Shown here in pieces: positions 2,515 through 57,245 of a stretch of DNA of 64,000 bases; within the stretch, counting starts at the first letter, position 1, and each line of letters starts with the position of its first letter. The translations under genes and the position numbers were made by a program. This DNA is from a virus. Lineage: Duplodnaviria; Caudoviricetes. Below the pieces are notes generated by a model, which had not been told where the DNA came from, made no database searches, and saw nothing but the letters and a program-made list of their open reading frames with translations. The DNA lies in the IMG/VR virus record IMGVR_UViG_3300028591_000100, positions 1 to 64,000 of that record; one strand, written 5' to 3'.

Positions 2515-3333
2515 ATGAAAGAATACATACTAGAAGCACTAGAAAGATTGGCAATGCCTGACGAACTACATAAAAAAGAGTGCGAAAGGTTAGGTATTAG
2601 TTTAACTGAAGATTACGAAGTAGTTAAACAAGCCTTAACAAAGCTACAAGCAATAGAGGAAGCCAATCCTAGTGAGGCGTTAGAGTGTTTGGATAAAATG
2701 ATTAGAGATTTTAACGAAACAACTACTGGTATGAATGGGCTAGGAGAGGTTGTAGTAGGAAATGAACTTGTGTATTTTCATAAGAAAGAGTTAGAAACTA
2801 TCAAACAAGCTTTATTAAAACAATTAAGTGGCAGTCAATACACAAACATTGCTATTGATGAAGCCAATCCTAGTGAGGCATTGGAATCATTGATTAGAAT
2901 GGACAATTTATATTGTGCTATATGTCCTCATACAAAAGGGGATTGTAATGAGTGTGAATATAATCAAAAATCTAATATTGTTTATCAAGCCTTACAAAAG
3001 GCTCGAGAACAAAATGAACTTATCGAAGAATACGACTTGAAACCTTATGAGTTAAGAGAGGCTTTACTGTTGTATGCTATGTATAAGGGTGAGTACAAGG
3101 GAAACCCTCTACCATCATTAAAACAATACAAAAAGCAAGAAAAGGAAAATGCTGAATATAAAGAAGTGTTAAGAATTATATTTGAAAAGAATATAGATGT
3201 AGAAAAATTGAAATATAGATTAAGAGTCGAAGAAGACGATGATGATGTTTATTTACATTACAAATATGACTTAATTATGACAAGAGAAGAATTTGAGTTG
3301 CTAAAGAGGTGGTGTGAGAAATGGCTAAATTGA
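2515..3333 (+). CDS. hypothetical protein, EAxPSEALE / EKNVD modular family
   Basis: Two EANPSEALE repeats plus C-terminal IFEKNIDV...TREEFELLK module shared with paralogs. Confidence 0.85.
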   Translation: MKEYILEALERLAMPDELHKKECERLGISLTEDYEVVKQALTKLQAIEEANPSEALECLDKMIRDFNETTTGMNGLGEVVVGNELVYFHKKELETIKQALLKQLSGSQYTNIAIDEANPSEALESLIRMDNLYCAICPHTKGDCNECEYNQKSNIVYQALQKAREQNELIEEYDLKPYELREALLLYAMYKGEYKGNPLPSLKQYKKQEKENAEYKEVLRIIFEKNIDVEKLKYRLRVEEDDDDVYLHYKYDLIMTREEFELLKRWCEKWLN

Positions 3334-3462
3334 ATATTGAGAAAATAAAAGAGCATGACGACAGTAATTATCTAGCCAATGACTATAAAACATATTTATG
3401 TAGAATAGGTTGTTCTAATACTGGTTTAGATTTAAGTCAGGAAATCGAGGTAGATAAGCCAC

Positions 3463-5093: not shown

Positions 5094-5647
5094 AATTAAA
5101 AGATTTTGAAGATTTAGGATTCACAGTAAAAACAACATATGAAAATACACCTATAAGGGTGGTTGTGTGTAAGGAAGAAGATTCGTATCAACAAGTTCTT
5201 GCCTTTGCGAAACAACATGGTGACTGGGATGAGATTAGTAAATACGCTCGCACCCTTGATTGCTGCCTTGGCCCCGTAAGTTATCAAAATGGAGAGTTGA
5301 TCGGTGTAAGATTGGTTACCTATAAACCTGGCACCAGATACTACACTGTTGTCGGCGACATCTCCTTATTTATTGAGGTTGTAGACGGCGTCGTGGTAAA
5401 CGTGAATGATATGTGCACATATTTCCACTCCGTTTGTAATTTTAATTGTTTATATGAAAAAGATACTTTGGGTGATGATGATGTGACAGCAGCTCAACTA
5501 CTAAAGCAGATGTATGACCACAGACTACGCAATGCACAGGACATCAGAAACTATTACAACAAAGAAATCAAAGATTTAAAACAATCTTACAGAAACTCAT
5601 TAGAACAAGCAAAAGCAGGATTAGATTTTTTAAAACAATTTAGTTGA
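5090..5647 (+). CDS. hypothetical protein
   Basis: 185 aa, GAGG RBS. Confidence 0.8.
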   Translation: MKLKDFEDLGFTVKTTYENTPIRVVVCKEEDSYQQVLAFAKQHGDWDEISKYARTLDCCLGPVSYQNGELIGVRLVTYKPGTRYYTVVGDISLFIEVVDGVVVNVNDMCTYFHSVCNFNCLYEKDTLGDDDVTAAQLLKQMYDHRLRNAQDIRNYYNKEIKDLKQSYRNSLEQAKAGLDFLKQFS

Positions 5648-13228: not shown

Positions 13229-13312
13229 GTGCTTATTGAGCGAAACCCGCTGAGATAGCTTGGTTTGCACGTTGGTTGGTGGTTATCCAATTTAAAACCA
13301 CCTGCTCAGCAC
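13229..13312 (+). ncRNA. candidate structured leader RNA with pseudoknot
   Basis: GTGCT/AGCAC, GAGC/GCTC, AAACC/GGTTT, GGTGGTT/AACCACC stems; loop CCAA can pair with upstream TTGG. Confidence 0.45.
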
Positions 13313-13348
13313 ATATTAAAATTTTATGAACATAAGGAGGATATAAAA

Positions 13349-14323
13349 ATGATGTTCGAAGATATGAGTTTAGTAAATTTAGAAAATCTTGAAAATAAGG
13401 AAGGTAAAAAAACAATGGAAAAAACTATAAAATTAACTACAAAAAAATCAAATTTGGTAAAATTCGCTAAGATTCAATTCTTAGGAATTTTATTGATAGC
13501 TGCTGCTATGATTATAGTAGCTTTAATTATTAATAATAATAAAACAACAAATACTGTTACAATTGAAAAAGAAATAAAGGTTGTAGATCAAGCCGCAACA
13601 GAACAAGAGGCTCAAAAGTTGTTTGATGCTTATGTGGCAAATTATCAACCAGAAGTAATCGAAAAGACTGTTGAAGTCGAGAAGATTGTGGAGGTCGAAA
13701 AACCTGTTACAATTACTGAAACTGTCGAAGTCCCAGTAGAAGTTGAAAAAACAATCTACGTAGACAAACCTGTTGAAGTAGAAAAAGTTATTACCGTTGT
13801 TGACCAACAACAAGTTCAACAACTTGCTACAGAAATGGCTAATGCCATGTATATGGCTTACAAAGAAGCTTATACTGCTCAAGTTAATGAAGCCGCTACT
13901 CAAGCTGCTATTGATACAAAAACAGCAGAATTGCAAGCAGAATATACTCAGCTTATGAGTGAATACATTGCAAAAGCAGACGCCGAAAAGGTTGCTACAT
14001 TAGCAACTGAAATGGCAAATAATATGTTTGAACAATTCAAACAAGATTATGTTGTCGAATATGCAGAAGCACAAGAGGCAGCTAGAGTTGCTAATACTTC
14101 TGTTATAAGAGTATTGGTATATACACCAGAAAGTTATTTCTTCCTAGAGATAACAGGTTCATTACACGATGAACTAACATGGGATATCATTCTTGAAGCT
14201 TTACAAGCTGACGCTCGCTTTGATGGTCTAAAAATCAAGAAGATTGAACACAAAGATGCAGTAGAAACTTTTGTTGGACGCGATTTCGATTCAACAAGAG
14301 TTATCCATACTATATACAAATAA
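13349..14323 (+). CDS. single-pass membrane protein with PVEVEK repeats and internal helical repeats
   Basis: AAGGAGG RBS at about 13334 (alternative start 13415); TM FLGILLIAAAMIIVALII; VEKPV/VPVEVEK repeats; ATEMAN twice. Confidence 0.85.
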   Translation: MMFEDMSLVNLENLENKEGKKTMEKTIKLTTKKSNLVKFAKIQFLGILLIAAAMIIVALIINNNKTTNTVTIEKEIKVVDQAATEQEAQKLFDAYVANYQPEVIEKTVEVEKIVEVEKPVTITETVEVPVEVEKTIYVDKPVEVEKVITVVDQQQVQQLATEMANAMYMAYKEAYTAQVNEAATQAAIDTKTAELQAEYTQLMSEYIAKADAEKVATLATEMANNMFEQFKQDYVVEYAEAQEAARVANTSVIRVLVYTPESYFFLEITGSLHDELTWDIILEALQADARFDGLKIKKIEHKDAVETFVGRDFDSTRVIHTIYK

Positions 14324-14332
14324 GGTGATTAT

Positions 14333-14506
14333 ATGAATAAAATCTTGGGGTATGATATAGCTCTTACCAAAATTTATCCAGATGAAAAAGTGGCAAAAGG
14401 ACAGATAAATATGTTTGACCCCGTTGTGGTGGTTGAACGTGTTTCAGTGCCACAAAAAATAAATTTAGAAAGGCAGCCTATAAAGCCTATGACAGGAAAG
14501 TTGTAG
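14333..14506 (+). CDS. 57-aa small ORF whose stop codon lies inside RNA motif copy 1 (not in ORF track)
   Basis: AAGGTG RBS; MNKILGYDIALTKIYPDEK...PIKPMTGKL. Confidence 0.45.
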   Translation: MNKILGYDIALTKIYPDEKVAKGQINMFDPVVVVERVSVPQKINLERQPIKPMTGKL

Positions 14507-14558
14507 ACTAACAGTAGGAAAGAGAGGTGGCTTCGGTTGCCTCTCGCCTGGACTAAAT
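14463..14558 (+). ncRNA. three-way-junction RNA motif, copy 1
   Basis: GCAGCCTATAAA-stem-TAACAGTAGGAAAGAG-stem(cUUCGg loop)-CTCTCGC. Confidence 0.65.
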
Positions 14559-14565
14559 GTTGAAA

Positions 14566-14661
14566 GAAAGATATAAAGCAGCCTATAAAATCTATGGCGC
14601 ATGTCGTAGGTTAATAGTAGGAAAGAGGGATGGCTTTGTCGTCTCTCGCTTTGTATCTTTC
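14566..14661 (+). ncRNA. three-way-junction RNA motif, copy 2
   Basis: Same junction sequence, different stem sequences that still pair; 14-bp closing helix. Confidence 0.65.
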
Positions 14662-14951
14662 GTTGAGCATTTAGCTCAAGAAAGGAAGTGGTAATATGGC
14701 CACACAAGACGAAACACTCTTAGATGAGGACTCAGAATCTTTTTGTCACGCTGAATTCAATTTTACAGAGACAGCTATATCTTTAACTGGTGCCTGTAAG
14801 AGTTTAATGTTAGCAAGAGGATTTTTGGCATGCCACTACCGCGCGGCGGAGGTGGGTGCGATGAGCTAAAAACCAAAACAATTTCATAAGTAAAACAAAA
14901 ATCAAAAAATATTTAGCGTAGCAAGTGCCTACGCGGAAAGAGAGGAAAAAT

Positions 14952-57154: not shown

Positions 57155-57245
57155 TGGCGTCGAGAGGGGGCTTTGAACCCCCGCACCAGTTACCCGATCT
57201 AACAGTTTAGCAAACTGTCCTCTTCAACCGCTTGAGTATCTCGAC
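57155..57245 (-). tRNA. tRNA-Ser(GCT), CCA encoded
   Basis: Minus strand GTCGAGA...ACAGT-TTGCTAA-ACTGT anticodon arm, long variable arm, GGGGG-TTCAAAG-CCCCC T-arm, TCTCGAC-G-CCA. Confidence 0.92.

Follow-up and report, generated by a model that had tools for sequence, protein, structure and literature searches.

What does a pair of branched RNA folds do at the end of a small phage gene? The question is raised by a 64,000-nucleotide stretch of viral DNA (the window), which is the first 64 kb of the 154.7-kb IMG/VR virus record IMGVR_UViG_3300028591_000100, a genome estimated to be complete. Two tandem copies of a three-way-junction motif lie on the + strand of the window, at 14463-14558 (copy 1) and 14566-14661 (copy 2), and the first of them meets the end of a small open reading frame that we call ORF-A. 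A preliminary description of the locus had reported the two copies, their shared junction strings and their differing yet paired stems, all of which is correct, and had proposed a new small ribozyme, a processing signal, or a protein sponge or antitoxin mimic. We find that the two neighbouring Y-shaped folds are a real structured RNA under selection for structure. As to their role, we tentatively conclude, with a probability of roughly 0.35, that the element is a clade-specific cis-acting RNA module at the 3' end of the ORF-A message, which may serve as a translation-gated branched terminator or attenuator, or as a stabiliser.

Fold of the two RNA units

Both copies adopt the same three-way junction, on the strand of all surrounding genes. 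The alignment of the ~96-nt units (80-88% identity) places the differences in the stems, and the strings GCAGCCTATAAA, TAAYAGTAGGAAAGAG and CTCTCGC are common to both. The closing helix, P1, is followed by an unpaired A, then G or A, and by a 5-bp P2. Past P2 lies an asymmetric, purine-rich internal loop, in which AA faces A-R-Y-A, and then a 10-bp P2a with a variable loop. Three purines (R-A-A) precede P3, a GC-rich hairpin of 10 bp whose loop is UUCG in units of the copy-1 type and UUU or UCU in those of the copy-2 type. P3 abuts the 3' strand of P1 in all copies, and since there is no linker between them, P1 and P3 can stack. The inner stem is formed by GCCTATGAC/GTTGTAGAC in copy 1 and by ATCTATGGC/GTCGTAGGT in copy 2; the third stem reads GAGAGGTGGC-ttcg-GTTGCCTCTC in the former and GAGGGATGGC-ttt-GTCGTCTCTC in the latter, and the closing stem is AGGC/GCCT in copy 1 and a 14-bp GAAAGATATAAAGC/GCTTTGTATCTTTC in copy 2. 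The positions of all helices and linkers are listed in Table 1.

Table 1. Positions of the helices and linkers of the two RNA units and of the associated genes (window coordinates unless stated otherwise).
Feature	Position	Strand	Remarks
Copy 1 P1	14471-14474 / 14546-14549	+	4 bp
Copy 1 outer P1 extension	14463-14468 / 14553-14558	+	5-6 bp
Copy 1 J1/2	14475-14476	+	AG
Copy 1 P2	14477-14481 / 14514-14518	+	5 bp
Copy 1 internal loop between P2 and P2a		+	AA / AACA
Copy 1 P2a	14484-14493 / 14500-14509	+	loop 14494-14499; holds the ORF-A stop codon 14504-14506
Copy 1 J2/3	14519-14521	+	AAA
Copy 1 P3	14522-14531 / 14536-14545	+	UUCG loop
Copy 2 P1	14566-14579 / 14648-14661	+	14 bp
Copy 2 J1/2	14580-14581	+
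Copy 2 P2	14582-14586 / 14617-14621	+
Copy 2 P2a	14589-14598 / 14603-14612	+	loop GCAU
Copy 2 J2/3	14622-14624	+
Copy 2 P3	14625-14634 / 14638-14647	+	loop UUU
Copy-2 3' flank	14663-14692	+	hairpin UUGAGC-AUUUA-GCUCAA, then ORF-B Shine-Dalgarno AGAAAGGAAGUGG
ORF-A	14333-14506	+	57 aa; clade-specific small gene; good Shine-Dalgarno AAGGTGA; TAG at 14504-14506
ORF-B	14696-14869	+	57-aa acidic small protein; only in the three tandem phages
352-aa protein gene	13265-14323	+	upstream of ORF-A; one membrane span, long acidic VEVEK repeats, conserved C-terminal globular part, no family assignment
YorL-type DNA polymerase	68030-71920 of the genome; 5031-8921 of contig L111	-

Folded alone, copy 1 has a minimum free energy (MFE) of -34.1 kcal/mol (z -4.07) and copy 2 one of -49.4 kcal/mol (z -9.14), and none of 200 shuffles was as good in either case. 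The three-way junction is both the MFE and the centroid structure for each unit, and the 256-nt stretch spanning the two units yields a z of -7.6. The reverse complements fold poorly (z -2.3 and -2.4) because several of the pairs are G-U. A two-segment sequence pattern occurs 2 times in the window, against 0.00 occurrences expected by chance, and the covariance model (CM) scores are 103.9 bits for copy 1 and 96.6 bits for copy 2. The folding z-scores, the strand bias and the pattern counts therefore identify the feature as real, on the + strand and at the RNA level. A promoter or other DNA-level signal was considered and rejected: the TATAAA in P2 becomes TGTAAG in related phages, and the G-U pairs of the fold are C.A mismatches on the other strand.

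Copies in related phages

A covariance model built from the two copies of the window (R1) detected only these two copies over the whole 154.7-kb genome. Related contigs were collected from Logan, ENA and JGI assemblies with the upstream 352-aa membrane protein as anchor, and scanning them with R1 gave further homologs: a tandem pair in L092 and in L088, and a single copy in L086 (L087 is identical) and in L107. A degenerate pattern scan of metagenome contigs returned 9 stretches, of which 3 are true copies, those of L095, L098 and L100, the last identical to L095. Altogether there are 10 distinct copies in 7 distinct phage contigs, the window and six others, with the tandem form in 3/7 and the single form in 4/7. 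Variants of the P0125 type have the tail LKKQPIKPMTGKF.

Searches further afield gave no additional copies. BLASTN of the element and of the surrounding 5 kb had zero matches in 50,697 isolate phage records; in IMG/VR, beyond the window's own record, four pattern designs gave nothing or chance matches that the covariance model rejected, and a search of IMG/VR for relatives with the 352-aa and 689-aa proteins gave nothing usable. A pattern scan of 185,579 bacterial and archaeal species genomes produced 3 chance matches, none of which the model accepted. Model R2, for which all ten copies were used, found no further copy in the 154.7-kb genome, in Bacillus phage SPBc2, in one IMG/VR relative or at other loci. 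Where the membrane protein is more distantly related (43-51% identity; L089-L091, L093, L094 and L108), it is followed by other small genes, with neither ORF-A nor the RNA; the weak model matches in these contigs (E about 0.002-0.01) come from another UUCG hairpin, which is repeated. In the data searched, the RNA and ORF-A always occur together and neither was found alone. Within the reach of these data, the element thus appears restricted to a handful of uncultured phages, a single small clade distantly like SPbeta.

The hairpin of the distant relatives is an observation in its own right. It is inter-genic and repeated, reads ATGGAGATGAC-TTCG-GTCGTCTCTAT followed by GAATG.TATTA and preceded by TTTAATAT, and is located at 2688-2713, 3103-3130 and 6628-6653 of L093 and at 5912-5937 of L089. 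It resembles P3 without the junction; in that clade it may act as a terminator or as a promoter-proximal signal of its own. As for the element itself, a dispersed genomic repeat was rejected, since the 154.7-kb genome has just the two copies and lacks P3-like hairpins at other sites.

Covariation and conservation

In a model-guided alignment of the 10 copies (A3), 99.3% of the 290 pair cells are standard, and sliding the 3' partners by 1-3 columns lowers the paired cells to 32-56%. Seven of 29 pairs are changed on both sides. The covariation score is 0.356, compared with 0.231 ± 0.018 for shuffles, and 0 of 500 shuffles reach the observed value. Since A3 is fitted to the model, the test was repeated by RNAalifold on a plain MAFFT alignment that includes the flanks; the same three helices plus P1 were recovered, with seven pairs again changed on both sides, and none of the four helices is without such a pair. 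Copy 1 and copy 2 alone differ by three double changes, one each in P1, P2a and P3 and all from G-C to A-U, and one C.A mismatch becomes U-G. The split between the two copy types is old and by itself supplies these three double changes; because the copies are close relatives, the double-change counts exceed the number of independent events.

The conservation is unevenly distributed over the fold. The pairs adjacent to the junction and every linker purine are invariant or nearly so, and the distal stems and terminal loops drift, with a 9-nt loop insertion in one copy. P2a is closed by AGGAAA, UGGUAA, GCAU or a 15-nt loop, and P1 ranges from 4 to 14 bp. As a whole, the RNA stretch (14465-14704) is the best-conserved DNA of the neighbourhood, with an identity of 0.97-0.98 to L092 and of 0.78-0.90 to L088, as against 0.4-0.7 for the flanking genes. 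The selection on RNA structure claimed in the preliminary description is borne out by the covariation in 10 copies, the strand-specific fold and the conservation above the flanking genes.

Its statement that the motif does not match the hammerhead, twister, pistol or HDV cores also holds, since no Rfam 15 family matches anywhere in the window at gathering thresholds; this extends to twister-sister, hatchet, hairpin, glycine, purine, TPP, glnA and xrRNA. A permissive search (E ≤ 10) of 14300-14800 gave four noise matches of 9-17 bits, where the gathering scores are 39-87. A self-cleaving ribozyme of a new class could be imagined from a three-way junction with an invariant core that is inter-genic and occurs in tandem, as some ribozymes do, while fitting no known class. 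We nevertheless regard this reading as very improbable, and nothing in the present analysis points to it. The conserved unpaired bases are only purine runs of 2, 2, 3 and 4 nt, with no known catalytic core; the loops are variable, with no conserved loop-loop or pseudoknot contacts; and the GAAA-like linker is lost in L086 and L088, which have GGAA. Moreover, ribosomes have to translate half of the first unit, and no positive argument for catalysis emerged.

Overlap of the first unit with ORF-A

The preliminary description had correctly let the 57-aa frame end inside copy 1, where its TAG falls in the inner stem, P2a. What it had overlooked is that the overlap is no accident, for in 7/7 contigs the ORF-A stop lies within the first copy. 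The C-terminal 13 codons of ORF-A (ERQPIKPMTGKL) plus UAG are the 5' half of copy 1; this tail of the gene supplies P1, P2 and P2a with their 5' strands and extends through the loop into the P2a 3' strand. ORF-A itself is 57-65 aa long, directly follows the membrane-protein gene in 7/7 contigs, and has the invariant segments GQINMF and LERQP..MTG among its seven aligned orthologues. The family comprises 5 clusters in 5.8 billion proteins, with the same tail in all. No protein look-alikes of ORF-A or ORF-B were found in Atlas.

The window type and the L086 type differ in the ORF-A tail by I to V, K to R and P to V, which correspond to A11G, A15G and C17G, and the non-coding partners of these positions change in step (U46C, U40C and A38C). 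Three non-synonymous changes that are each compensated in the non-coding strand imply that the RNA pairing, and not the peptide tail, is preserved. A read-through or frameshift signal for the ORF-A stop was also considered and rejected, as L088 has two in-frame UAGs and a slippery heptamer is absent.

A 45-aa frame (14557-14694) spans copy 2, is open in the three tandem phages (the window, L092 and L088) and ends at the ORF-B start codon. It has no Shine-Dalgarno sequence, and between the window and L088 it shows ~7 non-synonymous to 3 synonymous changes, with all P3 pairs intact. Lacking a ribosome site and with substitutions that look neutral for a protein, this frame is treated as non-coding, and the conserved RNA sequence probably leaves it open as a side effect. 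A protein-coding repeat was likewise rejected: the reading frame would differ between copy 1 and copy 2, and no frame under purifying selection spans the unit.

The 3' end of the array

The second unit ends, in all three tandem phages, in a U-rich P1 3' strand (GCUUUGUAUCUUUCGUU). The single units of L086, L095 and L107 end in GCCUUUUUAUAUAU, and a U-rich tail (UUUUUAUAUAU) follows the unit. The U-rich tract forms the 3' side of P1, paired with an upstream A-rich strand, and with the flanks P1 comprises 12-14 bp. In a consensus scan, P3 plus tail scored as terminator-like in copy 2 (14625-14647) and in L086. The U-run begins three bases past P3, after the GC(C) of P1, and because of this offset only the full junction, with the G-C pairs of P1 formed, brings a helix up to the U-run.

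A scan for a promoter of the RNA's own found none. The fixed position at ORF-A, the co-inheritance, the lack of a promoter of its own and the terminator-like tails together make a cis role on the ORF-A transcript the best supported one. We infer both the function, termination or stabilisation, and its gating by translation from sequence. Each unit would be Y-shaped, with P3 stacked on P1 and the P2/P2a arm branching off through the short invariant purine linkers. In the last unit of an array, the U-rich 3' strand of P1 would turn the whole junction into one branched intrinsic terminator and 3'-end protector. A ribosome finishing ORF-A would have to melt P1, P2 and P2a of the first unit; translation of ORF-A could in this way gate the folding and, through it, termination or read-through into the downstream genes, as well as the stability of the upstream message.

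Several points weigh against this proposal. The single copy of L098 is without a U-tract (GCCUUAAUGCUAAAU), the first copies of the tandem forms also lack one, which means that termination is not a universal function of the fold, and the U-rich tail of copy 2 is interrupted (UUUGUAUCUUUC). A plain hairpin would suffice for termination or protection. A specific ligand or protein partner is suggested instead by the invariant junction, by its 11 conserved unpaired purines and by the conserved P2/P2a arm in copy 2, which is non-coding, although shared ancestry explains part of the 'invariance', all copies being close kin. Since a terminator or stabiliser leaves the conserved junction and the extra arm of copy 2 unexplained, the other readings have to be kept.

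The first of these is that the invariant junction is a sensor, either riboswitch-like or a protein operator, which binds a ligand or a phage or host protein and thereby stabilises P1. P1 would then complete the terminator in single forms or free the ORF-B ribosome site in tandem ones, and two units would give a sharper or a two-input response. We consider such an aptamer possible. It would account for junction-proximal pairs and linker purines that stay invariant while the distal stems and loops drift, and a P1 of variable length is seen in many aptamers. In addition, the outer 5 bp of the copy-2 P1 (CUUUC, 14657-14661) can be sequestered in an alternative helix with GAAAG (14681-14685), which is part of the ORF-B Shine-Dalgarno sequence; the small conserved hairpin of the flank would lie between the two strands of this helix. 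The alternative helix, however, shows no informative variation, being invariant or, in L088, weakened, and so lends no covariation to the idea. The flank in which it lies (14663-14692) is 87-98% identical to its relatives, and the fold of 14655-14700 has a z of -3.19; because the flank never varies, we infer its membership in the element without covariation. No known riboswitch family in Rfam matches, the downstream phage ORFans give no metabolic hint, a first unit within a coding region is unusual for aptamers, and the distribution is tiny. Precedents are the terminator-embedded HMP-PP riboswitch (PMC6478431) and tandem aptamers (PMC9481103).

A more doubtful variant is a new sensor or nuclease-blocking fold switched by the ribosome that terminates in the first unit. 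It would be either a terminator-embedded aptamer for a ligand or phage protein, or a phage counterpart of the tandem exoribonuclease-resistant RNAs (xrRNAs) of flaviviruses, halting a 5'-to-3' nuclease, for example RNase J1.

Alternatively, the units might be cut from the ORF-A transcript as a stable, trans-acting non-coding RNA that serves as a decoy or sponge for a host or phage protein, such as a nuclease or a defence protein; we hold this to be somewhat doubtful. Small RNAs derived from 3' untranslated regions consist of a structured body and then a terminator hairpin at the gene end, which is the layout of the single-copy form (structured body, terminator hairpin, gene end). The fold is compact and very stable, with its UUCG-capped P3 and long P1, and duplication to two units would raise the dose. 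On the other hand, no promoter for such an RNA was found, it would have almost no single-stranded seed, it always overlaps coding sequence, and no partner gene was recognised among the neighbours. Scans of the window found no likeness to a host RNA family, a CRISPR repeat or a tRNA, and the only tRNA-like fold detected by ARAGORN in the window is a tRNA-Ser at 57155-57245. Phage RNA mimics that defeat a defence system are known, namely pseudo-ToxI (PMC3475682).

Finally, the processing signal of the preliminary description is a live rival, though an unlikely one. P1 stacked on P3 would form a near-continuous helix of 17-24 bp that an RNase III-type enzyme might cut, separating the ORF-A message from those downstream and leaving a protective hairpin. 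The linker-free contact of P3 and P1 in all copies fits such a site, as do the total of 24 bp for P1+P3 in copy 2 and ~22 bp in L086-type forms, the location between genes of one operon, and the conserved sequence around a branched internal region. Against it, P1 of copy 1 in the window has merely 4+5 bp, and the P2/P2a arm would have no role. The overlap with the stop codon and the U-rich tail favour a cis role at the mRNA 3' end or as an attenuator.

Genomic neighbourhood and host

The genome encodes a 1,296-aa DNA polymerase that aligns over 99% of its length, at 38% identity, with YorL of the Bacillus SPbeta phages, and by its sequence the phage appears to be a distant relative of the SPbeta group. 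Its ribosome sites are strong and AGGAGG-like. The YorL-type polymerase together with such sites makes a Bacillota-type host likely, and control by termination is common in Bacillota.

The neighbouring proteins have no assignment in Pfam, PHROGs or PADLOC, except for a phrog_5706 protein of unknown function. They are small ORFans, and only the 352-aa membrane protein has relatives across the wider phage group. The ORFans downstream differ between tandem and single-copy phages and share no metabolic theme. ORF-B is absent at the single-copy loci of L086, L095 and L098, and its restriction to the tandem phages indicates that copy 2 and ORF-B were apparently gained or lost together. At the 3' end of ORF-B, a GC-rich island (CCGCGCGGCGGAGGTG) in AT-rich surroundings (window 14836-14856, L092 ~3418-3433, L088 ~5594-5610) is nucleotide-identical in the three phages; it encodes the RAAEV tail of the protein, and its fold is not significant (z -0.97).

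The phrog_5706-like downstream gene (155 aa) has many relatives, in which the gene is not linked to the RNA. An AcrVA2-like (PF26125) gene lies a few kb downstream of it in two unrelated phages, at 6419-7480 of L009 and 3972-5033 of L010, so that in these the phrog_5706-like gene travels in an accessory or anti-defence neighbourhood. Just 5' of the phrog_5706-like gene, positions 14908-14940 of the window hold the conserved string AATA(A/T)TTTAGCGTAGCAAGTGCCTACGCGGAAAGAG, which includes a small hairpin formed by GCGTAG...CTACGC. The string also occurs at 3485-3515 of L092, at 5665-5695 of L088 and at ~1095-1120 of L098 (- strand), where it is directly 3' of the single RNA unit; the genome has no second occurrence of it. 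Its role might be that of a promoter, an operator or a leader hairpin.

Comparison with known systems

The motif was previously uncatalogued; it is absent from Rfam 15, has good comparative support, and would belong by its kind to the cis-acting structured elements of transcript ends. Catalogues cover the structured RNAs of bacteria far better than those of phages. The present fold is small, clean and has strong support, and it is also a compact natural case of one stretch read as both a protein tail and an RNA stem. Should the fold prove to gate termination through the terminating ribosome, or to bind a ligand or protein, it would give phages of Gram-positive gut bacteria a new regulatory device and synthetic biology a portable 80-nt part; as nothing more than an elaborate terminator or stabiliser, it would be a minor addition to the phage cis-elements. 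The very narrow distribution limits its general importance.

Among phage RNAs, the put RNAs of HK022 are cis antiterminators of ~70 nt with several stems, present twice per genome, with covarying stems; they act on the transcribing polymerase and need no dedicated gene product. The present element is likewise a multi-stem phage RNA with covarying stems, in two copies in the window. The put RNAs, however, are two stacked hairpins that lie in separate operons upstream of terminators, whereas the element is a P1-closed junction that occurs in tandem and contains a terminator-like hairpin. The RNase III sites of phages T7 and SP82 are inter-genic stems with an irregular middle, and the cut leaves a stabilising 3' hairpin on the upstream message. 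They share with the element the conserved inter-genic stems, but they are single interrupted hairpins, while the element has a covarying P2/P2a arm and a total helix length that is not constant.

The tandem RNA units of type III antitoxins (ToxI, CptI, TenpI) and of pseudo-ToxI resemble the element in being structured, adjacent to a small operon and found in a phage setting (PMC3475682). Those repeats are 34-45 nt long, near-identical and present in at least 2-5.5 copies, in contrast to units of ~90-96 nt that are 80% identical and single in 4/7 phages. They precede, behind a terminator, the gene of a ~170-aa endoribonuclease toxin, whereas the element follows a 57-65-aa ORF that is not toxin-like, and no endoribonuclease of the ToxN, AbiQ, CptN or TenpN type was found among the ten neighbouring proteins with Pfam, PHROG and PADLOC. 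The antitoxin mimic of the preliminary description is accordingly not upheld, as these searches gave no toxin- or defence-like neighbour and the units are one or two and diverged, not near-identical short repeats.

The flavivirus xrRNA1 and xrRNA2 (PMC5760640, PMC8374639) are also compact three-way junctions of ~70-90 nt near a stop codon, often in tandem, with a cis effect on RNA decay, and they are reported to stop the bacterial RNase J1 as well, a nuclease typical of Bacillota (PMC5760640). Unlike the element, the xrRNAs depend on a pseudoknot that forms a ring about the 5' end and on a conserved pairing of a loop with downstream sequence; neither is detectable here, because the apical loops vary and a linker between P3 and P1 is absent. 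In addition, xrRNAs follow the stop codon, which in the element lies inside the first unit, and there is no Rfam match.

With intrinsic terminators and the HMP-PP (thiS) riboswitch (PMC6478431), the element shares a GC-rich P3, a short closing helix and a U-rich tract paired with an upstream A-rich strand. It differs from them in that its hairpin is an arm of a conserved three-way junction, that the GC(C) of P1 separates the U-tract from P3, where an intrinsic terminator has its U-run within 0-2 nt of the hairpin, and that L098 and all first copies are without a U-tract; and thiS, like other riboswitches, shows neither a sequence nor a model match to it. In the HMP-PP (thiS) riboswitch, the regulatory fold and the terminator use the same nucleotides, as they would in the present element (PMC6478431). 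By analogy with this precedent, the element seems to work most like a terminator with an embedded regulatory fold.

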